Below are positions 17,687 to 59,012 of a DNA stretch of 64,000 nt, piece after piece (within the stretch, counting starts at the first letter, position 1; the number at the start of each line of letters is the position of its first letter). The stretch covers positions 3,087 through 67,086 of the forward strand of contig JBDLKA010000004.1 in NCBI GenBank assembly GCA_039714075.1. Reading direction: 5' to 3'. The DNA is from Candidatus Krumholzibacteriota bacterium (lineage in GTDB: Bacteria > Krumholzibacteriota > Krumholzibacteriia > LZORAL124-64-63). A model generated the notes under the pieces. The model saw nothing but the letters and a program-made list of their open reading frames with translations, was not told the origin of the DNA and did no database searches. The position numbers were made by a program, and so were the translations under genes.

Positions 17687-17977
17687 ATGAAAAATAGAAT
17701 CCTCAGTCCATGGTTGTTGGCCGTGATGATCGCCACGCTTGCCGCGGGAACCGCTCTCGCTGACATCCCGGATGGCGATGAGCACCCCTGGGACAGCGAG
17801 TCCACAGACCCTGTTCTCGAGGGGGACGAGCATCCCTGGGACAGCGAGTCCACCGATCCAGGTATCGAGGGAGACGAGGGTCCCTGGGACGCCGATTCTG
17901 CCGGAACGCTGGATGCGGCCTCGGCGGAAGCGCTGTTGTTTGCGGAGCAGTTAGCCGAGTTGGCACAGTTGCCGTAG
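17687..17977 (+). CDS. Small secreted acidic tandem-repeat protein (96 aa; signal peptide plus GDEHPWDSESTDP repeats)
   Basis: Strong RBS AGGGAGGGA. Signal peptide MKNRILSPWLLAVMIATLAAGTALA. Two near-identical 13-aa repeats plus a degenerate third (39-nt DNA tandem repeat). Followed by an intrinsic terminator. Confidence 0.6.
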   Translation: MKNRILSPWLLAVMIATLAAGTALADIPDGDEHPWDSESTDPVLEGDEHPWDSESTDPGIEGDEGPWDADSAGTLDAASAEALLFAEQLAELAQLP

Positions 17978-18071: not shown

Positions 18072-20762
18072 CTACTTCTCGAGCGTGAGCAGATAGATGT
18101 CGCCGTCGTCCGTGTCCTGGGTGTAGACGATTCGCGTGCCGTCGTGCGACCAACCGCCGTTGTGGACGTGCCACCGGCCCTGGCCGTTTGTAATCCGTTC
18201 GAGGTCACCTACAGGTTTGGGCAAGCCGGACCCGGAGGCCGGGACCTCCAGTTCGAGCACGAACAGTCCCTGGTCGAAGTGGCTGGCCGATTTCACCAGG
18301 GCGAGGGAACCGCCGTCCGGCGCCAGGATCATTTCCGTGTGGGGTCCGGTAAAGAGCAGGACTTCCTCACCTGTCTGAAGATTGGCGGCCCGCAGTTCCA
18401 TCTTGTCGCCGGCCATGGTGCTATACACGATGCGATTGCGGTCCAGATACCAGTCGAAACGCAGGACCCCGGGAAATACGGACTTCGCCTTGGTGTCGCC
18501 GTGACGATCTGTCATCCACAGGGATGTTCCCCCGATATCAGGCAGTACGTATCCGATCGACTTGCCGTCCGGCGTCCAGCGGATGCTGAGGCTTACCGCC
18601 CAGACAACGCTGGGAATTGATATGTCCCGGATCGAGAGGTGCTCGGGAGGCCCGCTTCCGTCGGCTTTGGCGATCCAGATATCCGTGGGCCCGTCCCGGT
18701 TGGAGAGGTAGGCAATCTCCTCGCCGTCCGGTGACCAGGCCGGGAGTATGTCCATGGACGGATGTTTGGACAGGTTCAGTTCCTCGTGGGTCTCAAGGTC
18801 CACGATCCAGATTTCCTCGTTTCCGGTCCGGGTCGACTGGTAAGCGATACGATCTCCCCCGGGAGCATATCGTCCGACGAAGTTGTCGGCGGTCCAGGAG
18901 GTCAGCTGTTCGGACTCGCCGGTCGAGACGTCCACCGTGTACAGGTCCGTCTGATGGCTCCACCGCGTGTAGACGACAAGTCCGTGGGAAGAAACACTGG
19001 GATACCAGTCCTTTCCGCCGCCGAAGGTAAGCTGGCTCAACTCCCCCGAGTCCACGTGGATACCCCAGATATTCTCCATCCCACTTCTGTTGGACCCGAA
19101 GATGACGTACTGATCTCCGAGCAGAAACGAGGGGTCCATGTTTGCGAATTCGTCCGCCAGGAGTTCGTGTTCCTCCCCACCCGGAACCGATATCAGGAAC
19201 AATCTCGATGTTCCCGCGTGGGATCGTGTAAACACAATCCACTTGCCGTCGAAAGAGAAGCTCCCACTCAGGTCACGAGCGCCTGTCGGGGGAAAGGTGA
19301 CCTGCTTTTCGTCCCTGGTCTCGAGGTCCACCTTAAAAATCGCCACATCACCGTTATCCAAAATCCGGGAATACAGCAGACTCTTGTCCCCCGGAGCCCA
19401 AGGCATGGATCCGAGCAACCGCACCGCGTCCCAAAAATCGTTCAGGTAGGGAACCCGGGTCTCGACCAGTTTGGTCGATTTGCCTCCCAGGGGCGAGATC
19501 GTGAAGATATCACAATAAATCCCATCCCCCCCCAGATAGGCGATCTGGTTCCCGTCGCGGGACCAGCGCGGCAGATCCTCGTCTCCGGGATCATCGGTCA
19601 GACGCAACTTTTGTCCGCCAAGGCGCGATTGCATGTACAGGTCCATCGTCCCGTGTTCAGTGTGGCCGTAGGCGATGAATTCCGAGTTGGGCGACAGATT
19701 TCCCGAGAATTCAGGGCCTCGGGCAAAGGTGATGCGATCTGTTCCACCCGGAGAAAGCTTCCCGCCCGATTCCCAGGGCTGCATGACCAAGAGTGAAAGG
19801 GCGGCGGCGATGACCACCACAACGGCAACCAACCACGCCGTGCGAGCCGAACCCGGCTTTTGATCGCGTTGTTTCTGTTGGGCAGGGGCGGTGAATCCGG
19901 AATCGCGTTTGAGCATCTTGAGGTCGGCCCGGATTCCGGCCGCGCTCTGATAGCGCAGTTCGGGATCCTTCTCGAGGGCCTTGTTGACGATGCGCTGCAA
20001 CTCGGCCGGAACCTTCCGGTTGAGCTTCACCGGCGCCGTCGGGGCCCGATTCAGGATCGCATCGAACATGGCCGCGGACGTGTTCCCCGCGAAGGCGCGC
20101 CGCGCCGTGATCATCTCGTACAGAACCACTCCCAAAGAGAAAATGTCGGTCCGGTGGTCGAGGCCCTTTCCCAGCGCCTGCTCCGGCGACATGTACGACA
20201 CGGTGCCAACCACCGCCCCCGGATTGGTCATGTCCAAGGCGGTCATGGTTGCGCCATCGAGTCCCGGCTCCTGTTCCGTGTCGGGAGCGAGCTTGGCCAG
20301 CCCGAAATCCAGCACCTTGGCCTGGCCCCGGTCGGTAACGAAGATGTTGGCCGTCTTGATGTCCCGATGAATGATCCCCTTGGCGTGAGCGGCGTCCAGC
20401 GCATCGGCGATCTGGAGGGTGAGATCGACCGCTGACTCGATCGCCAGGGGTTGGCCGCCGATGTGTTGCTGAAGGGCCTGCCCCTCCAGCAGTTCCATGA
20501 CGATGAACCGCCTGCCTTCCCACTCGCCGATGTCGTAAATGGAGCAGATGTGGGGGTGGTTCATCGCCGAAGCGGCGCGGGCCTCGCGAATGTGACGATC
20601 GACATTCTGTGGTTTCGTGGCCACCTCGTCGGGAACGAATTTCATGGCGACGTTGCGCCCAAGACGCGTGTCCTGGGCCTTCCACACCACACCCATCCCG
20701 CCTTCGCCGATCTTCTCGATCAGGCGGTAGTGCTGTATGGTTTGACCAGACTGGATATTCAC
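18072..20762 (-). CDS. Eukaryotic-like Ser/Thr protein kinase with a single TM and a periplasmic TolB-like tandem beta-propeller (WD40/PD40 repeats), 896 aa
   Basis: GTG start directly abutting the upstream stop (TAGGTG). Hanks kinase motifs [33 protein letters not shown] after ~residue 300. C-terminal PD40-like repeats. Confidence 0.9.
19880..20762. repeat. Direct repeat copy A (5' kinase-domain coding region of the tandem Ser/Thr kinase genes)
   Basis: Matches 22181..23063 at a constant offset of 2301 nt. The spurious ORFs 20451.., 20609.. and 19981..20370 reappear near-identically at 22752.., 22910.. and 22282..22671. The 5'-most ~470 nt (20292..20762) appear identical, and identity decays towards the 3' side. 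Confidence 0.8.
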
Positions 20763-23093
20763 CTACTCGTCCCCCTTGTGTTCCGCCAAACCCTTCAATC
20801 CCGCCATCTCAAGCCCCTCCATCAGGTGGTCGGTCAAAGCGACCGTCATGGCGTGACGTTCAATCAATTCCCCGCGAATCTCACCGACAGGCCGAGCCCA
20901 CAGCGTGAGCATCTCGTCCAGCGCTGGCCCAGCATCCCCGGAACGGCCGAGTTGCCCGTAGGTTGCGGCAAGATAAAGCGGGCCGCGAAAGTCACCGCCA
21001 CCCAAATCAACATCCCTCAATTCAGTCAGGGCCTGTTCGTGTCGCCCGTGTCGATAGTGGTCCAGGAAAAAGGGCGTCCTTATCCAGCCAGGGGGATTCG
21101 GATCAAGTTCGATCGCTCTGCGCACCATCGGCAGGCTGTGTTCGAAGTCCTCCAACTGGGCAAGGAAGAACCCGAACATGGCCAACCACATGGTGTCGTT
21201 CGGGTTCAGGTCGATCGTCCGGTAAGCTTCGATCTTGGCGCGTTCATAATCCCCGCTGGTGAAATGGGTGAGAGCCATGGCTCCGTGGGCCACATGGTTC
21301 CCCGTGTCGAGCCGTACCGCCTTTTCGGCAAGCTCCAGCGCCCGTTCGAGAGCATCATATTCGTCCGAACGCTCGTTCCAGCGATGGTGGGTTTCCTCGG
21401 CATATATGTAGGCCAGCCAGGCCAGGCCGTCAGCGTAGTCGGAGTCGTCTCCGATCACACGTTCCAGGCAATTACGCGCCGCCAGATGATTTTCCGGTGT
21501 GTGTACATGCAGGTATTCGTACGTCCGCAGGACGCAATCATAACTGTCCAGACTCGCCGGAGGTTTACGTCTGGAACCGGGCAGTCCCGCCCTGGTCAGG
21601 GCTCCGTACGATCCGGCGATCGCGCTGACGACCTGTTGCGTCAACTCGTCCTGCAGCTCGAAAAGATTGGCTACCGTCAGATCACGCTCGTAGTTCGTTC
21701 CCCATATCAACCGCCTGTCGCCGGAATCGGAGAGCTGGACATTGACCTTGACCTGATTCCCTGCTTTGCGGACGCTTCCCTTCAACAGATAACGATTTAC
21801 AGGCAGGGTACCGGCCCGGCCAAGGTCTTCATCGCGATCCTCGTAGCTTTCCGTCGAACTGTGGGCGATCACGGTCAGCCTGCTGTAGCGAGAGAGCTCC
21901 GTGACGATATCCACGGTCAGTCCTTCGCTGAAGTACTTCTGATCCGTATCCCCACTGGCATTGGTGAAGGGCAGAATGTCGATCGTCGGACCTCTCGAAG
22001 AGGTCTGTTGGACACCTGCGTCAATCCCCTTTTCTGGAGCAGTGTCTGCCGGGGTTGCGTCTCGCCCGGACAGCCCCTTCAGCAGAATCACCGCCACCAC
22101 CGCGGTCAGCAACACCCCGGCCACTCCCCACAGGCCCACTCGGAGCCGGTCCGGGCCGGCAGCAACCGGTGGCGGGGTCACGGCGGTCATGCCTGCGGAC
22201 GAGTCCCGCTGCATTCGCTTCAGATCGCTCCGCAGTTCGGCTGTGCTCTGGTAGCGCAGCTCGGGATCCTTCTCGAGAGCCTTGTTGACGATGCGCTGCA
22301 ACTCGGGCGGGACCTCCCGGTTGAGCTCCACCGGCGCCGTCGGCGCCCGGTTTAGGATAGCGTCGAACATGGCCGCGGACGTGTTCCCCGCGAAGGGGCG
22401 CCGCGCCGTGACCATCTCGTACAGAACCACGCCCAAAGAGAAAATGTCGGTCCGGTTGTCGAGGTCCTTACCCAAGGCCTGCTCCGGTGACATGTACGAC
22501 ACCGTGCCCACCACCGCCCCCGGAGTCGTCATGTCGAGCGCGGTCATGGTGGCATCGTCGAGTCCCGGCTCCGGCGTTGCTCCGGACGCGAGCTTGGCCA
22601 GCCCGAAATCCAGCACCTTGGCCTGGCCCCGGTCGGTAACGAAGATATTGGCCGTCTTGATGTCCCGATGAATGATCCCCTTGGCGTGAGCGGCGTCCAG
22701 CGCATCGGCGATCTGGAGGGTGAGATCGACCGCTGACTCGATCGCCAGGGGTTGGCCGCCGATGTGTTGCTGAAGGGCCTGCCCCTCCAGCAGTTCCATG
22801 ACGATGAACCGCCTGCCTTCCCACTCGCCGATGTCGTAAATGGAGCAGATGTGGGGGTGGTTCATCGCCGAAGCGGCGCGGGCCTCGCGAATGTGACGAT
22901 CGACATTCTGTGGTTTCGTGGCCACCTCGTCGGGAACGAATTTCATGGCGACGTTGCGCCCAAGACGCGTGTCCTGGGCCTTCCACACCACACCCATCCC
23001 GCCTTCGCCGATCTTCTCGATCAGGCGGTAGTGCTGTATGGTTTGACCAGACTGGATGGACACGAATTTTCTCCCCCTGGTCGTCCCGACCAT
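20763..23093 (-). CDS. Eukaryotic-like Ser/Thr protein kinase with a single TM and a periplasmic TolB-N-like plus TPR-like sensor domain, 776 aa (or 766 aa from the GTG at 23063)
   Basis: The kinase domain is identical to the downstream paralogue over its first ~157 aa. The periplasmic part shows an [17 protein letters not shown] motif followed by TPR-like helices. A GGGGGAG RBS precedes the GTG at 23063. Confidence 0.9.
22181..23063. repeat. Direct repeat copy B (5' kinase-domain coding region of the tandem Ser/Thr kinase genes)
   Basis: See copy A. Includes the RBS region, and divergence begins immediately upstream of the start codons. Confidence 0.8.
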
Positions 23094-26000: not shown

Positions 26001-26038
26001 ACAGAAGGGGCGCCCTTGCGAGCGCCCCTTCTTCTGTC
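26001..26038. terminator. Bidirectional terminator hairpin between convergent genes (10-bp stem GAAGGGGCGC/GCGCCCCTTC)
   Basis: Perfect 10-bp GC-rich stem with an 8-nt loop and T-rich flanks on both strands. Lies between the kinase-3 stop (25972) and the actP stop (26054). Confidence 0.4.
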
Positions 26039-33750: not shown

Positions 33751-33810
33751 CAAGAGCTTCCACCTGACAAAGCCAGCATTTCCCCAACTCCCCCATTGTT
33801 CCCACAACCA

Positions 33811-33836
33811 GAAAAGTGCCCCCGGGGGCACTTTTC
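33811..33836. terminator. Bidirectional terminator: perfect 26-bp palindrome GAAAAGTGCCCCCGGGGGCACTTTTC
   Basis: A perfect inverted repeat with A/T runs on both sides. Lies between convergent genes (33750 stop on +, 33874 stop on -). Confidence 0.55.
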
Positions 33837-33873
33837 TCAAGTGATATCAGGGATAGGCTGCAGGGAGGTAAAA

Positions 33874-35778
33874 CTATTTGGCCAGCAGCATCCGACGCGT
33901 TTCCACTTCGTCCCCAGCATGCAAACGATAGAAATACACCCCCGTAGCCACCGTCCTCCCTGCCTGATCCCTTCCCATCCAGACCTTTTCGTGCTGCCCC
34001 GCTGCCTCGCTGCCGGAGTACAAAGTCCGCACCAGCCGTCCAGCCAGATCAAACACCTGAAGATCCACCTGGCCCGCGCTTTCCAGCTCGTACTTGATGG
34101 TGGTCGATGGGTTGAAGGGGTTGGGCACGTTCTGATGCAGCACCACTCCAGCCAGGACACCCGTACCCGGAACCGGGCTCAACTCGGGCTGGAAAACCTT
34201 CCCCACGAATTCCGGCCGGTCGATAAAGGGATTCCGGTTGCCCTGGATGTCATAGACCGCCTCGTTGCGGTCGACCTCCTTGGCACTGACCGGATCGTCG
34301 GCGTTCCATTCCAGCAACAGGGCCTCGGCCCAGGGCAGCAGTGTCGCGCCGGAAGTCATGTCGCTGCCGGGCCAGCCCGCGTCTTCCCCGAAATACCGCG
34401 TGGTCATGTAGAAGTAGGCGCGGGCGAAATCGCCTTTGTACTCGTCGATGGGTTCGAAGACGGTCCCGCTATAACCCGGATAGGCGCAGGGTCCCAACCG
34501 GCTCCCGTTGAGCGAGGTCCAGGTGGGCGAATTCACCTCGCCGAAAGGAAAGCTGCCCCGCTTGTTGTTCACCTCGTTGTCCGTGGGGACGACCATGAAC
34601 ACGTCGGAATACATGGGAGAGGTCGCGCCGTACCAGCTGCTGGGCCAGGAATGTTCGCGGTTGTAACCGGTTCCCTCGGTGCCGGCGGTTCCCCCCTGGT
34701 CGACGCCGAAAGTGTATTCGTAAGGCGGCGTCCCCCCGGGCACGTCCGAGTACATGTCCCAGACCTTGCCGTTGGGCTTGTCGTCCGTGGTGTAGAAGGC
34801 CGACCATAGGCCGTCGTAACTGATGACCGTATGATTATCGATGATGTTGTGCAGGGCCGCCCGCAGGGGCTCGCCGATCAGACCCTCGGCGGAAGTGTAA
34901 TAACCCGGCGGGATGTTCGCCCCGGGAATGGTATAGGAGTCCTCGCCGGAGACCGTTTCGGCCGGAATGTCGTTGGCCGCGGTGACACTGAAATAGATAA
35001 CGGTTCCCGCGACCTGGCCGGGGATCGGGGTGGCCGTCTGGAAGGTGTCGCCACCGGTGTTGGTCATGGTGATGGGATTGATCAGCGCGCCGGATATCGT
35101 ACCCCAGTTCAGGGTCACGGCCGTGATGTTGGCGACCGCATCGGTGACCGCCGCCTGCACGTCAACCGTCTCGCTTTCCACCGGAGATGCAGGCACCGTG
35201 GTGATGGATCCGATGACCGGACCATCCCCGGCCACCGCGCTGTGCGTTCCCGGCGTGGCTTCGCTGGGATAATCGACGGGAGTGGCCGTCCACTCGGCGG
35301 CGTTATAGGCCGGGCTGGGCGAGGTGACATCCCCGTTCCGCACCATGGTCATGTTCTCGAACGCGACACCGGGCACCACGATGTCGTCGACGACAGTACC
35401 CAAGTCGTTTTTCAACCGGGCGCCGTCACCGATCTTCCCGTTCCAGGTGGAATTGCTGGTCGACCAGGCCTCGGCCGGAAAATCGACCGGGAAGACGTCG
35501 ACCGTGGTCTGGTCTCCCGCCACCAGGGCCTGTCCCGGAGCAATCGTTCCCGACAGGTTCCAGGTAAAGATCTCGACGGAGTTTCCCATCGCCACGATCT
35601 GCCAACCGGTCAGGTCCTCGGCCGTCGCGCCGGAGTTGTAGATCTCGATGTACCGGTCGGTCAGGTAATTGACGCGGGGGTCGCAGAGTTCGGACACCAG
35701 GACGTCGGCCTGCGCGGCCGGAGCCAGGGCGGAAAAAACAAGCAGAACCAAGGCGAGTTGGGCGATGACCATTTTCAT
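33874..35778 (-). CDS. Secreted extracellular nuclease: lamin-tail domain, endonuclease I (EndA/Vvn family) domain and a T9SS type-A C-terminal sorting domain, 634 aa
   Basis: Signal peptide. LTD (VLVSELCDPRVNYLTDRYIEIYNSGATAEDLTGWQIV). Endonuclease_1 motifs REHSWPSSW and GNRNPFIDRPE. C-terminus NPFNPSTTIKYEL..GVYFYRLHAGDEVETRRMLLAK. Confidence 0.85.
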   Translation of the reverse strand: MKMVIAQLALVLLVFSALAPAAQADVLVSELCDPRVNYLTDRYIEIYNSGATAEDLTGWQIVAMGNSVEIFTWNLSGTIAPGQALVAGDQTTVDVFPVDFPAEAWSTSNSTWNGKIGDGARLKNDLGTVVDDIVVPGVAFENMTMVRNGDVTSPSPAYNAAEWTATPVDYPSEATPGTHSAVAGDGPVIGSITTVPASPVESETVDVQAAVTDAVANITAVTLNWGTISGALINPITMTNTGGDTFQTATPIPGQVAGTVIYFSVTAANDIPAETVSGEDSYTIPGANIPPGYYTSAEGLIGEPLRAALHNIIDNHTVISYDGLWSAFYTTDDKPNGKVWDMYSDVPGGTPPYEYTFGVDQGGTAGTEGTGYNREHSWPSSWYGATSPMYSDVFMVVPTDNEVNNKRGSFPFGEVNSPTWTSLNGSRLGPCAYPGYSGTVFEPIDEYKGDFARAYFYMTTRYFGEDAGWPGSDMTSGATLLPWAEALLLEWNADDPVSAKEVDRNEAVYDIQGNRNPFIDRPEFVGKVFQPELSPVPGTGVLAGVVLHQNVPNPFNPSTTIKYELESAGQVDLQVFDLAGRLVRTLYSGSEAAGQHEKVWMGRDQAGRTVATGVYFYRLHAGDEVETRRMLLAK

Positions 35779-38885: not shown

Positions 38886-41885
38886 TCAACGCACCCAGGT
38901 CACCTTGCGCACCATGTGTTCGTCCGTGCGCGGTCCCTTGACCGAAAGCCGCACCAGGTACTGGCCGCTGGCGACCGTCCGGCCCTCGCCGTCACGTCCG
39001 TCCCAGACGGCCACGTGCGTTCCCTCGGGCGCTTCGGTGCGCATCACGGTCCGGATCCTCCGGCCCCGGATGTCGAAAACCTCCAGTGAAGCCACGGCCC
39101 GTTCCGGCAGCGAGAACGAGAATTGTGCCTGACTCGATGCCGGGTTGCCCGTCGCCAGAGCGAACCGGACACGCGTGATTCCCGACGAGGACGGATCGTC
39201 CACACCGCTGACGATGTCTTCCGGGCACTCCCAGCAGCCGGTGCGTTGCGGATCGTGTCCCTGCATGGCCCAGGTGGCCCACGACGAACCCGGAGCGTTG
39301 TTCAGATCGAAGATCATCAGCTGCGATTCATCCAGGACGACGAGTTCGGTGCTTCCGTCCAGATCCAGATCGCCCATGGCCGCGGTCTGGTGCACGTAGC
39401 TGGGGGTCGCTCGGGGCCACCCGCCCAGCAGGTTGCCGAAGTTGTCCCACGCCCGGATCTTCTTGTCCCGGGCCCCGATGATGACATCGCCCGAAGCCCC
39501 TTCGATCTCGCCCATGATGGGATCCGCGTAGATCCACCAGCCGACACCCGTACTGACGGGATATCCGACTGCGGAACCACCGTGATAATAGGCCAGATGG
39601 ACTTCGTAGTTCTGAGCCGCGAATGCGATCTCTGGCTCACCTGTACCCAGGCAATTGGCCAGCGCGGCGCTGGACAACGGGTAAGTGTCACCGGTGTAAT
39701 AGGGCCAGCCTGGAAGTTCCGTGCCGTCGTCGTCCAGAGCGTGCATGTACCCGTTGACCGTGGGCACCAGGACTTCCACGTCTCCGTCGCTGTCCAGGTC
39801 GCCCAGGGTCGGTACGTCACTGATGGTGGTCGGCATGGTTTCGGCGAACGACACCAAGCCCGACGGATGGTAGGACGCCACCCAGTGGGTACCGGCGATG
39901 ACCAGCTCGTTCAGGCCGTCGCCGTTCACATCACCGATGGCCGCCGGGTGCAGGAGAGGCTCAACCGTGGCCGGGAAGAAGAACCCCGGCGGGACCCGGC
40001 CGCTGTAATTGAAGGCTTCGGCATGGCTGCCTGCACACACCGCGACCACGCGGTGGTAGGGCGGGCCGAGGGTGCCGATGCTGACGTGGGCCTCTGCGGA
40101 ATCGATGGCGCTGATCGGCCAGCCTGGAATCAGCGTGCCCGAGGGGTCGTACAGGAAGATCTGCCCGTTTACGGCGCCGACCGCAATCTCGGGCGATTCG
40201 TCACCGTTCAAGTCGCCCACGGCCACGGGACTGCCGGACAGGGTCACCCCGGGCACCACCGGCCAGCCGGCCACCGGAGTACCATCGTGGTGCAGGGCCA
40301 CCACCTGATCGCTGTCGTTGCTGAAAATAATTTCCAGATCGCCGTCACCGTCGAGATCGACTACCGCCGGAGCGGTCTTGGGCGGGTGCAGCAGTTCAAT
40401 GGGTGAATCCGGCTCCTCGACCGGCCAACCGGGATCGTTGAACCACTCCGCGTCGAACAGCATCTCGCGACCGCTGACTTCATAGTGGTATGACCAGAAA
40501 GCACCGATCCGTTCACCCTGGGCAAGGTTCAGGGCGGCGGGATAACAATTGACGGAAACGATGCCCTCGTGCGCACCATCCGTGAAAACCTGGGGATCCG
40601 ACCAGACCGTCGGCGCGGAAGCAGCGGCCCTTATGATCTCGGTTCCATGTCCGAAATTGTTCATGATCCAGGTATCGGTACTGGACTGCCAGACCAGACC
40701 CCGCACGTCCCCGTACCCCAAATCAAAAGACGTGGGCCAGGTGGTGCCCTGGTCAGCGGAGGCACGGATTTCGATATGGGAACTTGTGCCGGGTGGGTCG
40801 AAATCGTCCGTGATCATGACTTCGTCCCCTGTTTGCGAGGCCGCGATAAGGGGAGCCCGGTTTTCGAAACCGTCCGAGGTCGAGGACAGGGCAAGAACGG
40901 TGCCCCAGGAGCCGGAACCGCCGCTGGCGAAGGAATCGGCTCGCCGGTACCGGAAGGCCGAGTCGAAGGCGCCGTTGGTGGATATGAAAGACCAGACGAC
41001 GTGAACCTTGGAGTTGAAGCCGTAGGCGACACGGGGATTCCAGTAATCGCGATCAGCCACAGCCAGCTCGGCGATTGTGTATTCGGTTTCCCAACTGTCG
41101 CCCTGGTTCGTGCTGCGGGCGAACCAGATCTTGTCGTGGTCGATGCCCCGGCTCCGGGCCGTCAAGTAAAGGTAGTAGCTGCTGAAGTTTGGGGCATCTG
41201 TCGCCATATGGGGAGTCCAGACGTGTTCCCCCGTCGATTCGATGGCGGCGACCTCGGTGAACACGGGGACCGCTGCCGACAGCTCCGCGTGAACGACGAC
41301 GATATATTCGTTGCCCACGGCAGGTGTTTTTCGACAAGCGACGAAGCAGCGATCCTGGGAGCCCTCCGCAATAAGAATTTCAGCATTCCCGTACCGCACC
41401 GACGGACTGGGGTCCGCTATGGAACCCCACAGGGGCCAGGTCAGTCCGCCGTCGGTCGAACGATGGATATCGATCTGGTCGTTCGACACGGCGTTGGGCA
41501 CACCCTGGGCAATATACCCGTACCCGTTGCTGTCGAATGCCGTGGACGGGTATTCGGGAATATCTGCAAACGGTATGGCATACATCAGCACGTCGTCGCC
41601 ACCGATTTGTTCATGGGTCGTGGCTTGTTTATCGGCGCCAAACGATGTCACCATGCCATCGTGTTGAGAAGTCCCCGATTCCCGGACTTCGATCCGGGTC
41701 CGACCGGATCCAGGTATCACGGGTTGCAGGTCGGGGGGGAAAATCTTCACGCTCGAGCCGTCATCCGGCGGAGGTGGGGTTGGTGTACGTTCCAATTCAG
41801 CCGAGACCGGGACCACCGTGCACACCAGCAAGGCAAAAACCGGCAGCCATATCCGTAACGATGATTGAATTAGCGGGTTCTTCAT
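38886..41885 (-). CDS. Large secreted protein: N-terminal BNR/Asp-box (sialidase-like) propeller region, FG-GAP repeats, and a T9SS type-A C-terminal sorting domain, 999 aa
   Basis: Signal peptide. Asp-box repeats (STDGGLTWP, SADQGTTWP, STNQGDSWE). FG-GAP/calcium-binding repeats (DLDGDGDLE, GDVNGDGLNE, GDLDSDGDVE). C-terminus ..GQYLVRLSVKGPRTDEHMVRKVTWVR. Confidence 0.8.
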   Translation of the reverse strand: MKNPLIQSSLRIWLPVFALLVCTVVPVSAELERTPTPPPPDDGSSVKIFPPDLQPVIPGSGRTRIEVRESGTSQHDGMVTSFGADKQATTHEQIGGDDVLMYAIPFADIPEYPSTAFDSNGYGYIAQGVPNAVSNDQIDIHRSTDGGLTWPLWGSIADPSPSVRYGNAEILIAEGSQDRCFVACRKTPAVGNEYIVVVHAELSAAVPVFTEVAAIESTGEHVWTPHMATDAPNFSSYYLYLTARSRGIDHDKIWFARSTNQGDSWETEYTIAELAVADRDYWNPRVAYGFNSKVHVVWSFISTNGAFDSAFRYRRADSFASGGSGSWGTVLALSSTSDGFENRAPLIAASQTGDEVMITDDFDPPGTSSHIEIRASADQGTTWPTSFDLGYGDVRGLVWQSSTDTWIMNNFGHGTEIIRAAASAPTVWSDPQVFTDGAHEGIVSVNCYPAALNLAQGERIGAFWSYHYEVSGREMLFDAEWFNDPGWPVEEPDSPIELLHPPKTAPAVVDLDGDGDLEIIFSNDSDQVVALHHDGTPVAGWPVVPGVTLSGSPVAVGDLNGDESPEIAVGAVNGQIFLYDPSGTLIPGWPISAIDSAEAHVSIGTLGPPYHRVVAVCAGSHAEAFNYSGRVPPGFFFPATVEPLLHPAAIGDVNGDGLNELVIAGTHWVASYHPSGLVSFAETMPTTISDVPTLGDLDSDGDVEVLVPTVNGYMHALDDDGTELPGWPYYTGDTYPLSSAALANCLGTGEPEIAFAAQNYEVHLAYYHGGSAVGYPVSTGVGWWIYADPIMGEIEGASGDVIIGARDKKIRAWDNFGNLLGGWPRATPSYVHQTAAMGDLDLDGSTELVVLDESQLMIFDLNNAPGSSWATWAMQGHDPQRTGCWECPEDIVSGVDDPSSSGITRVRFALATGNPASSQAQFSFSLPERAVASLEVFDIRGRRIRTVMRTEAPEGTHVAVWDGRDGEGRTVASGQYLVRLSVKGPRTDEHMVRKVTWVR

Positions 41886-42058
41886 TGTCGGGACCTCCCT
41901 CCAGGACCTGTTTTTCTGTTCACGCTCCTTTTGCTATTCTCACCAAGATCCGAGCGGCTCAGGCCAATTGCGTCCGGGGCTCCAGTGGATCTTGGACCTT
42001 GTTCTGAATTTTGAATTTCACTTTACTTTAACACATGTGGTGGACCCGATGTAATAAA

Positions 42059-42180
42059 ATGGTTGTGCCAAAGCAATTGTGTCCGTCGCTGGATTGCAGG
42101 TCATGGTGATGGAAATAAGCAGCCACCGTAACAAAGTGACAAAAGGAGGTGCCCCGGGGCACCTCCTTTTGATGTTTGGA
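42059..42180 (+). ncRNA. Candidate small RNA / conserved structured intergenic element, copy 1 (~122 nt, ends in a terminator hairpin AGGAGGTGCCCCGGGGCACCTCCT plus T-tract)
   Basis: ~75-80% identical to 58323..58447, including an exact 24-nt block GGATTGCAGGTCATGGTGATGGAA and the terminal GC hairpin plus TTTTGATGT. Not explained by any CDS. The overlapping ORF 42079..42651 is antisense to a real gene and not conserved as coding. Confidence 0.3.
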
Positions 42181-42224: not shown

Positions 42225-42968
42225 CTATTTCCTGATCTTGTCCAGCAACCCCTTCGCCTGCTCCTCCACTTCGTCCTCCACCAGGTCCCGGGCCTTGTTC
42301 TCGATTTCCGCCCGGGCGATCTCGTCGGTGGCCTTCCTGGTCAAGGCACTCAGCACGGCCTTGGCGATCTCATCGGGCAGGGCGCCCTGGGCGCCGCCGA
42401 TGTCATCCAGTCGGATCGCGGGCAGATCCAGGGACCGCTTTTCCAGTCCGAGTGCGGAAGCATCGACTTCGATGTGTCCCTTTTCGAAGATGAACCGCTT
42501 GATCCGGATCCGCTTCACGTCGTCTTTCTTCTGGTCGCCGCCGTCGCCGCCACCGCTGGATGAACCGGCGTGCTGCTGCACGTTCTTCTGCAATTCGCCG
42601 ATATTCGAGGAGCCCTTCTTCATGAACTCGGCGTTGACCACCGGCGCCTGAACGCGGATCTCCTCGATCACGATCGGGTCCTCACGGAGGCTTTCCAGAT
42701 CGATATCCACGGTGATCTCATCGAGGGTGAAGGCCTGGCGGGTGCCAAAGGCCTCGGGACTGGCGATGCTGAGCCCGGCAATGGTGGCGCGGCCATCGCG
42801 CAGGGAAATGTCGACGCCCGAAACGGCGACGTCGGTCTCCGTCACGGTGCTGCCCTGGTCCTCGATGACCTTGGCGACAATGGAATTGAGGTTGGTCAGG
42901 AAATAGAAAACGCCGCCGATTAAAACGAGCGCCAGGACGACGACGACTCCGATCAAAATCTTCTTCAT
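42225..42968 (-). CDS. Hypothetical membrane-anchored protein (N-terminal TM, charged helical C-terminus), 247 aa
   Basis: MKKILIGVVVVLALVLIGGVFYF TM anchor. Plausible codon usage. No recognisable catalytic motifs. Confidence 0.55.
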   Translation of the reverse strand: MKKILIGVVVVLALVLIGGVFYFLTNLNSIVAKVIEDQGSTVTETDVAVSGVDISLRDGRATIAGLSIASPEAFGTRQAFTLDEITVDIDLESLREDPIVIEEIRVQAPVVNAEFMKKGSSNIGELQKNVQQHAGSSSGGGDGGDQKKDDVKRIRIKRFIFEKGHIEVDASALGLEKRSLDLPAIRLDDIGGAQGALPDEIAKAVLSALTRKATDEIARAEIENKARDLVEDEVEEQAKGLLDKIRK

Positions 42969-51355: not shown

Positions 51356-51604
51356 GAGAATCCCCCCTCGATTCATGGTAAGAACGATTTTTGAAGATTA
51401 AGGCCGGTAGGAATCCTCCGTGAGAATCGTCACCTCCCTTGCTCCCGTTCCTTGAGGGGGAGAAGTAGATTGGCCTGTCTTGAAATCCGCTGGGCGAGGG
51501 GAGGGCAAGGCGGAGACAATAACACAAACTCAATTTTAAAAACAACAAATTTTACCAGAATTGTCCACAATGTCAGTATGACAAAGGCCGGCCGCCAAAT
51601 CGGA

Positions 51605-51620
51605 TGCCCCCCGGGGGGCA
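51605..51620. terminator. Perfect 16-bp palindrome TGCCCCCCGGGGGGCA (terminator-like) downstream of the M28 peptidase gene
   Basis: A self-complementary GC palindrome with a CCGG core, ~70 nt after the minus-strand stop at 51690. Same style as the palindromes at 33811, 42140-42170, 58400-58430 and 59022. Confidence 0.35.
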
Positions 51621-51689
51621 GTATTATGTTAAGTAATTGAAACAATTGGATCTAAAAGTGGGGCCTTGGGGTGGTTTTTTGACTTTTGA

Positions 51690-58238: not shown

Positions 58239-58322
58239 CCTGTCTACCTTTCCATCGCAAACGGTGAGACGGGTATTACTGATTTTGACTATACCATATC
58301 GATGGGGTTTTCCAGTAAGACG

Positions 58323-58447
58323 ATGGTTGTGGCTTCGAAATTGTGTTTCACACCGGATTGCAGGTCATGGTGATGGAATTCGGCGGCAACCACAACGAAA
58401 TGGCAAAAAGAGGTGTCCCCGGGGGCACCTCTTTTTGATGTATTGGA
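58323..58447 (+). ncRNA. Candidate small RNA / conserved structured intergenic element, copy 2 (~125 nt, ends in a terminator hairpin AGAGGTGTCCCCGGGGGCACCTCT plus T5)
   Basis: A paralogue of 42059..42180. It sits in the divergent region between the FHA-HK start and the cupin gene, and no protein-coding gene on either strand ends here that the hairpin could terminate. Confidence 0.3.
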
Positions 58448-58583: not shown

Positions 58584-59012
58584 ATGCGAAAAATGTTGTA
58601 TGCGGTCCTCGTAAGTTTGTTCATCGGCGGGTTGTCGATCGACCCGGCCACGGCTTCGGACCACGATAAGAATCCGGCGGACGAATCCGGGTCCGGCGTG
58701 AATCTGGAGAGCTTGTTGAAGGCGGAGCTTGAGGGATTCGAGGGAGCCGAGGTCATCGTCAGCCGGGTGACCTTTCCTCCCCACTCCTCGCTGCCGAAGC
58801 ATTGGCATCCCGGCGAGGAATTCGCCTACATTCTGGAGGGTTCGGTCATCCTGTGGCAGGACGGCGAGGACGATCTCGTGGGCCAGGCGGGAGACGTCAT
58901 CAAGATCCCCCTGAAGAAGGTGCACACCGCCCGTACCGGGGACGAGAGCGCCACCGTCCTGGTGTTTCGGGTTCACGAACAGGGCAAGCCCGAGCGTGCC
59001 CTCGTCGAGTAA
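58584..59012 (+). CDS. Secreted cupin-domain protein
   Basis: The ORF runs 58509..59012. The signal peptide MRKMLYAVLVSLFIGGLSIDPATA starts at 58584. Cupin_2 motif HWHPGEEFAYILEGSV..GDVIKIP. Confidence 0.75.
   Translation: MRKMLYAVLVSLFIGGLSIDPATASDHDKNPADESGSGVNLESLLKAELEGFEGAEVIVSRVTFPPHSSLPKHWHPGEEFAYILEGSVILWQDGEDDLVGQAGDVIKIPLKKVHTARTGDESATVLVFRVHEQGKPERALVE

Follow-up and report, generated by a model that had tools for sequence, protein, structure and literature searches.

Two conserved intergenic elements ending in terminator hairpins: candidate small RNA genes in a Krumholzibacteriota bacterium

Introduction

Several bacterial regulatory RNAs are encoded as families of similar genes within one genome. 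Qrr1-5 of Vibrio and OmrA/OmrB of the enterobacteria are multi-copy families of trans-acting small RNAs (sRNAs) in which the copies share an invariant seed. Their genes are paralogous, intergenic and ~90-120 nt long, and in this the two elements described here resemble them. The elements lie 16 kb apart in a 64-kb stretch of DNA from a metagenome-assembled genome of the Krumholzibacteriota (hereafter the window), where an earlier note, made from the sequence, had proposed them as a candidate sRNA family. We found no described sRNA from Krumholzibacteriota in the literature; if transcribed, the pair would be the first candidate regulatory RNAs in this uncultured phylum of the FCB group. Here we analyse the conservation, context, predicted structure and coding character of the two elements, and weigh the sRNA reading against explanations at the level of DNA and protein.

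Results

Two direct copies of one element

The two copies are direct and intergenic, span ~120 bases each, and are located on the plus strand at 42059-42180 (copy 1) and 58323-58446 (copy 2). An alignment shows identity in 95 of 124 columns (~77%), or 79% when counted through ...GATGT.T, with a single 2-nt indel that falls within the terminal hairpin. The identity of ~75-80% given earlier thus stands, with the end of copy 2 corrected from 58447 to 58446, and the conserved blocks and the exact 24-mer that had been listed are all present in both copies. The features are the following.

42059-42139, plus strand: body of copy 1, comprising ATGGTTGTG, AATTGTGT, the 24-mer and an A/C-rich linker (defined by alignment, nhmmer and covariance model)
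42059-42067, plus strand: block ATGGTTGTG, common to both copies
42075-42082, plus strand: block AATTGTGT, common to both copies
42091-42114, plus strand: exact 24-mer GGATTGCAGGTCATGGTGATGGAA of copy 1 (exact match, run-length test)
42140-42180, usable on both strands: terminator of copy 1, a perfect 32-nt palindrome CAAAAGGAGGTGCCCCGGGGCACCTCCTTTTG (42140-42171) with the tail ATGTTTGGA
58323-58403, plus strand: body of copy 2, with the same blocks; its variable blocks differ from those of copy 1 and are still predicted to pair with the invariant strand
58355-58378, plus strand: exact 24-mer GGATTGCAGGTCATGGTGATGGAA of copy 2 (exact match)
58404-58446, plus strand: terminator of copy 2, CAAAAAGAGGTGTCCCCGGGGGCACCTCTTTTTG (58404-58437) with the tail ATGTATTGG

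The 24-mer occurs exactly twice in the window, and no occurrence is expected in shuffled sequence. Searches built on the pair recover both copies at E-values of 1e-39 to 1e-41 (nhmmer) and at 143-147 bits (covariance model), and neither method finds a third copy within the window, the other matches being unrelated terminator hairpins only. A weak nhmmer match to the core region at 35050-35086 on the plus strand (E ~0.02-0.04) lies inside the gene 33874..35778 and is probably a chance match in coding sequence. This match takes in a 12-nt exact complement of the 24-mer, CCATCACCATGA, at 35064-35075 on the minus strand.

Conservation covers the body, the hairpin and the T-tail and ends within ~10 nt past the T-run. 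The body, with a GC content of 0.48-0.49 against 0.61 for the window, consists of 81 columns with 21 mismatches, and both an identical run of 24 positions (P = 0.003) and the variance of the gaps between mismatches (P = 0.003) depart from an even spread. Because the mismatches are clustered in this way, the pair is not a neutrally decaying duplication.

Gene context

Copy 1 is located in a spacer of 339 nt, bounded by the stop of a DUF748/AsmA-like gene (42225..42968, minus strand) and by the start, at 41885, of a minus-strand gene of the FG-GAP/FlgD_ig T9SS type. Copy 2 occupies a 345-nt spacer between divergent genes, an FHA + HATPase kinase (start 58238, minus strand) and a cupin (58584..59012, plus strand). 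The gene map thus agrees with the placement, noted before, of both copies upstream of these two minus-strand starts; the distances are 174 nt to the FG-GAP gene and 85 nt to the FHA-kinase gene. In the plus direction, copy 1 is followed by the convergent DUF748 gene, whose 3' end it meets; copy 2 lies 137 nt upstream of the cupin gene. A riboswitch or attenuator is rejected by the context of copy 1, which meets a convergent gene and not a co-oriented leader.

The 16 kb between the copies encode T9SS cargo proteins, peptidases and a kinase, with neither an integrase nor a compositional break, and the window holds no tRNA. The idea that the copies are att repeats bounding a mobile island was rejected, there being no integrase, tRNA or compositional shift. 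Over the 25 kb from 38886 to 63990, the products of most genes have a C-terminal FlgD_ig or Por_Secre_tail domain, a mark of T9SS cargo. Among these products are FG-GAP, Laminin_G_3, LVIVD-repeat, M43 peptidase-PKD and fn3 proteins, and nearly all of the genes are on the minus strand. Repeats of another kind are found elsewhere in the window. A 300-nt direct repeat at 19917-20216 and 22218-22517 (89% identical, spacing 2301) marks two minus-strand paralogues in tandem (18072..20762 and 20763..23093), and just upstream of this repeat pair there is a 48-nt tandem repeat in two copies that are 81% identical (17771-17866).

Terminator hairpins

Both copies end in a GC-rich stem of 14-15 bp, with an A-run before it and TTTT(T)GATGT after it, and so in a GC-rich stem-loop followed by a U-run, the arrangement of an intrinsic terminator. 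The hairpin of copy 1 has a folding energy of -25.5 kcal/mol on the plus strand (z -6.2) and -25.1 kcal/mol on the minus strand. In copy 2 the corresponding values are -23.9 kcal/mol (z -4.4) and -21.2 kcal/mol, so that this hairpin is more stable on the plus strand by 2.7 kcal/mol; its asymmetry lies in a U-G pair on the plus strand that is a C-A mismatch on the minus strand. These energies and z-scores confirm the plus-strand intrinsic terminator that had been proposed from the strong GC hairpin and T-tract. By their A-run and T-run flanks, both hairpins look bidirectional. A strict terminator scan flagged copy 1 in the minus orientation and nothing at copy 2; it misses the other orientations because the T-run pairs with the A-run in an extended stem.

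In comparison to copy 1, the stem of copy 2 shows a compensatory change from G-C to A-U at its base and a paired 2-nt insertion. The hairpin is fully paired in both copies although the body has diverged by ~25%, and it is selectively maintained in both. The minus-strand hairpin of copy 1 lies 53 nt past the stop of the DUF748/AsmA-like gene (42225) and also serves as the terminator of that gene. Because the hairpin of copy 2 lies between divergent genes, on the other hand, it is no annotated gene's terminator and can only end a transcript begun within the spacer. A maintained, plus-biased terminator at this place therefore argues for a plus-strand transcript of its own at copy 2. The sequence that is conserved together with this terminator lies on its plus-strand 5' side, and plus is the more parsimonious of the two orientations.

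Hairpins with the same core, GTGCCCCCGGGGGCAC at 33816 and TGCCCCCCGGGGGGCA at 51605, stand behind ordinary genes in the window. More generally, terminators built as C4-6/G4-6 palindromes recur (33810-33837, 51604-51622 and 26003-26032; examples are AGAAAAGTGCCCCCGGGGGCACTTTTCT and GATGCCCCCCGGGGGGCAG), and the hairpin at 33810 lies between convergent genes and looks bidirectional. These recurring GC palindromes may be the standard terminator design of this genome or a REP-like family. In both hairpins (42146-42171 and 58409-58435) the 3' arm, CACCUCCUUUU, has exactly the sequence of the anti-Shine-Dalgarno tail of 16S rRNA, and the 5' arm, AAGGAGGUG, that of a perfect Shine-Dalgarno site. This correspondence is probably a by-product of the palindrome and could matter if the stem opens.

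Two short Logan contigs from run SRR27843389, on which the flanking genes lie, match the window identically where compared; they break at both hairpins, one ending at window position 42142 and the other starting at 58412. The break at copy 1 is probably caused by the 32-nt perfect palindrome; that at copy 2 could be due to low coverage or to a repeat.

Predicted fold of the body

On the plus strand, both copies share a predicted fold in the form of a long imperfect hairpin, closed by UGGUUGU against GCAGCCA in copy 1 or GCAACCA in copy 2. In this predicted fold the variable 5' arm pairs with the invariant GGUGAUGGA, and the inner stem takes its 3' arm from the 24-mer, which also forms the apical loop. 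All six substitutions in the body stems preserve pairing (6/6): each is a transition compatible with a G-U pair, and on the minus strand it would leave a C-A mismatch. The consensus structure has an energy of -38.2 kcal/mol for the plus strand vs -27.2 kcal/mol for the minus strand.

Against shuffled controls the body does not stand out. Column shuffling of the alifold consensus gave z-scores of -1.19 (plus) and 0.0 (minus), which is not better than the controls, and the single-sequence values against dinucleotide-shuffled controls, -0.9 and -1.9, are not significant. The covariation check proposed in the earlier note could draw on two sequences only: it yielded one compensatory pair, in the terminator, and none in the body. 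The one-sided compatible changes number seven: to the six of the body stems the terminator adds one, from C-G to U-G; a shuffle control of such pair counts is without power at two sequences.

Search for relatives

No match was obtained in the whole window with Rfam 15 at its gathering thresholds, and at permissive E-values the two spacers gave only sub-threshold matches confined to the terminator hairpin. The Rfam scan suggested earlier thus assigned the elements to no family, and because no test of family membership was positive, the pair is not a member of any described family.

Beyond the window, a degenerate 23-mer that allows third-position changes was scanned against one genome per GTDB species, the JGI metagenomes and IMG/VR. 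It gave 13, 29 and 0 matches, respectively, all of them chance matches limited to the pattern. A blastn comparison with plasmid and phage collections found no match. We also looked beside homologues of the neighbouring genes with nhmmer and the covariance model: the element is absent next to the FHA-kinase homologues (two loci, 63-65% identity) and next to the cupin homologues (two loci, 74-75% identity), in a synteny search whose nearest relative is only ~65% identical in protein. Further copies of the 24-mer, for which the earlier note had recommended a search, are thus found neither in the window nor in the collections scanned, and the element is an orphan with two known copies.

Promoters and targets

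The plus strand upstream of the copies has no recognisable promoter, whether sigma-70-like, Bacteroidetes-type or sigma-54-like, and the two upstream regions share no significant similarity. The Bacteroidetes -7 motif TAnnTTTG is not enriched in this genome (6 found vs 7.7 expected). The pairing of the 24-mer with the 5' regions of the adjacent genes, which had been put forward as a check, likewise gave nothing: there is no notable complementarity to their translation-initiation regions (z -0.3 or weaker). Scattered complementarities of 10-12 nt to the 24-mer elsewhere lie inside coding regions and look like chance. We also considered Hfq (ARN)n motifs as an explanation of the 3-nt spacing of substitutions in the linker, and set it aside since by inspection only two of four triplets fit.

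Coding potential

The candidate open reading frames score as non-coding or below native genes, with codon scores from -0.48 to +0.30. None has a Shine-Dalgarno sequence, whereas the neighbouring genes have GGAGG- or AAGG-type sites, and an exact look-up of 10 candidate ORFs in a collection of 15 billion proteins found none of them. By codon usage, start codon and ribosome-binding site, the elements are supported as non-coding.

Substitution patterns give a less uniform picture in the two frames of interest. The plus-strand ORF of 16 codons (MVVPKQLCPSLDCRSW vs MVVASKLCFTPDCRSW) changes as the earlier note had said, mostly non-synonymously. That description does not extend to the minus frame, which is open over the whole body in both copies (core ..SFCHFV.VAA.FHHHDLQS...HN...TTI.LL): here 11 of 22 mismatches, and 8 of the 11 within 42115-42145, fall at codon position 3, 7-8 codon differences are synonymous, and pN/pS is 0.44. 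Plus frame 0, despite its three stop codons, has a pN/pS of 0.38, and because a stop-bearing frame gives so similar a value, pN/pS is a weak statistic here.

Alternative explanations

Could the elements be small genes for proteins, or pieces of regulatory or repetitive DNA? A minus-strand small protein of ~32-44 residues (42028..42162 and 58289..58393) would account for the open frame in both copies and for the third-position bias just described. It is nevertheless improbable. The two ORFs share no start codon, their start positions differing: the GTG of copy 1 lies inside the hairpin stem, and the first start of copy 2 comes downstream of the stretch with most of the synonymous changes. Moreover, GC3 is 0.51-0.55 vs 0.66-0.88 in native genes, the codon scores of -0.34 and +0.26 fall below the in-frame mean of +0.41, and a strong terminator immediately upstream leaves no room for a promoter. 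A profile of the minus-frame peptide, compared with 1.84 billion representative proteins, returned no true homologue; the single match was rejected as chance, its score being summed over 10 tandem repeats of a repeat protein. The ORFs are not called in any source. The earlier dismissal of the antisense ORF at copy 1 as spurious is upheld in that the ORF fails as a gene by these measures, and was too quick in that the ORF shows a weak, coding-like phase in its substitutions. A plus-strand micropeptide of 16 residues, MVV..(Q/K)LC.(S/T).DCRSW, followed by a 3' UTR and the terminator, is the least credible of the explanations and very improbable. Its ATG falls exactly at the 5' edge of conservation, its stop has the same position in both copies, and both cysteines and the C-terminal DCRSW are conserved. 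All six differing codons are non-synonymous, however, and all ten conserved residues keep identical codons, so that conservation acts at the level of nucleotides; codon scores stand at -0.48 and -0.47, a ribosome-binding site is lacking, 60 conserved nucleotides downstream would go unexplained, and this ORF, too, is called in no source.

At the level of DNA, each copy could combine a terminator with a promoter or upstream regulatory region for the minus-strand genes FG-GAP (41885) and FHA-kinase (58238), with the conserved blocks as hexamers or regulator sites and the variable blocks as spacers. In its favour, each copy precedes a minus-strand gene start, by 174 and 85 nt, and the two are oriented alike; the minus-strand blocks can be read as ATGACC-N17-CACAAT, in which 8 of 12 positions match sigma-70 and variable block B forms the spacer; 35-36 nt beyond the element, at an equal offset, both copies have a second box resembling a -10 (TAAAGT and TATAGT, respectively); and the body has no significant RNA structure. 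We consider it unlikely all the same, since 7-8 of 12 matches are common by chance in these spacers and a standard scan reports no promoter, and since 24 invariant nucleotides make a large -35 region. Copy 2 has no minus-strand gene upstream of it, which would leave the maintained terminator without a role, and its hairpin is less stable on the minus strand. Nor are the two downstream genes related in function. Somewhat less likely again is a genome-specific intergenic repeat family of the REP/BIME, ERIC or MITE-like kind, a hairpin with a motif that has spread by copying and has at most a structural or nucleoid-protein-binding role. The elements are short, intergenic and duplicated independently of the flanking genes, an identity of ~80% with conserved blocks is typical of such families, the hairpin core GTG(Y)CCCC..GGGGCAC returns at 33816 and in similar form at 51605, and the Logan assemblies break at both hairpins. 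These breaks are equally explained by the palindrome itself or by low coverage of the hairpin, however, and the element has only two copies in 64 kb and none in 46 kb of related genomes or any public collection searched. Terminal inverted repeats and target-site duplications are not visible in the sequence, no transposase or integrase lies near or between the copies, and a position between divergent genes, as for copy 2, is unusual for REP-type elements.

Discussion

Our preferred reading, which we hold with somewhat less than even confidence, is that each copy is an independent plus-strand gene for a small non-coding RNA of ~115 nt. Such an RNA would have an imperfect hairpin of ~70 nt at the 5' side, followed by a short single-stranded linker rich in A and C and by a Rho-independent terminator. 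The invariant 24 nt would be its functional core, either as a seed that pairs with target RNAs or as a protein-binding site, and the opposite arm might vary so long as pairing with the G/U-rich core persists. The two genes would then be paralogues, as in the multi-copy sRNA families with one invariant seed. The terminator would be shared with the convergent DUF748 gene at copy 1 and would act for the sRNA alone at copy 2. Transcription of the elements, their 5' ends, a promoter and any target are what we infer under this model.

The sRNA family proposed in the earlier note has thus held up in part. The pair is real, has been conserved non-neutrally, has no coding character as judged by codon usage, start codons and ribosome-binding sites, and ends in a terminator, which in copy 2 is asymmetric between the strands. 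What did not bear the proposal out were Rfam, the search for homologues, the search for promoters and the fold of the body, which is not significant. Two further observations count against the sRNA model: it does not predict that 8 of 11 substitutions in 42115-42145 lie on a 3-nt lattice, and both copies are oriented alike to the downstream minus-strand gene, which a promoter module fits equally well. Two sequences are too few to establish either an RNA structure or coding potential, and in such a comparison a promoter cassette resembles an sRNA gene.

More elaborate forms of the model can be imagined. The elements might be an sRNA pair specific to this lineage, with each RNA antisense to the 5' leader of its neighbouring gene (FG-GAP and FHA histidine kinase), and through the shared 24-nt core they might cross-regulate and so form a cis/trans circuit; we think this improbable. 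A more unusual variant would be a bifunctional locus in which the opposite strand could also encode a microprotein, which would explain the 3-nt phase. If the elements are transcribed, the invariant 24-nt core would allow targets to be predicted directly. The finding is of modest practical value, as the pair is a lineage-restricted orphan with nothing that points to a new mechanism.

How do the elements compare with known systems? With bidirectional intrinsic terminators they share a GC-rich, perfect or nearly perfect palindrome flanked by an A-run and a T-run, and the hairpin of copy 1 stands at the 3' end of a minus-strand gene as well as of the putative plus-strand unit. They differ in that the hairpin is here part of a larger duplicated unit and that copy 2 lies behind no annotated gene. 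REP/BIME and ERIC sequences are, like the elements, short intergenic repeats in which a palindromic hairpin is combined with conserved motifs and copies are ~80% identical. In contrast to them, the elements are only two, one of them occupies a divergent promoter region, the palindrome does not extend over the whole element, and no RAYT or transposase is found in the window.

A likeness to CsrB/RsmZ is seen in the 24-mer, which starts and ends with GGA, 20 nt apart, and Krumholzibacteriota carry CsrA homologues (PMC13443453). We rejected the reading as a CsrA sponge: the elements have 2-3 GGA motifs, about the number expected by chance, and none is in a predicted hairpin loop. The Rfam match to RsmZ is at the level of the terminator, with an E-value of 9.4, and does not support this reading.

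In their layout, the elements resemble Qrr and OmrA/OmrB. By inspection of the sequence, no sigma-54 promoter of the Qrr type is seen at the elements, the promoter scan itself covering sigma-70 only, and they have neither sequence nor covariance-model similarity to any Rfam family. They share with these sRNAs a stretch of 20-30 nt that is absolutely conserved among the paralogues beside variable segments, and the order of parts, here predicted, of a 5' stem-loop, a single-stranded linker and a Rho-independent terminator.
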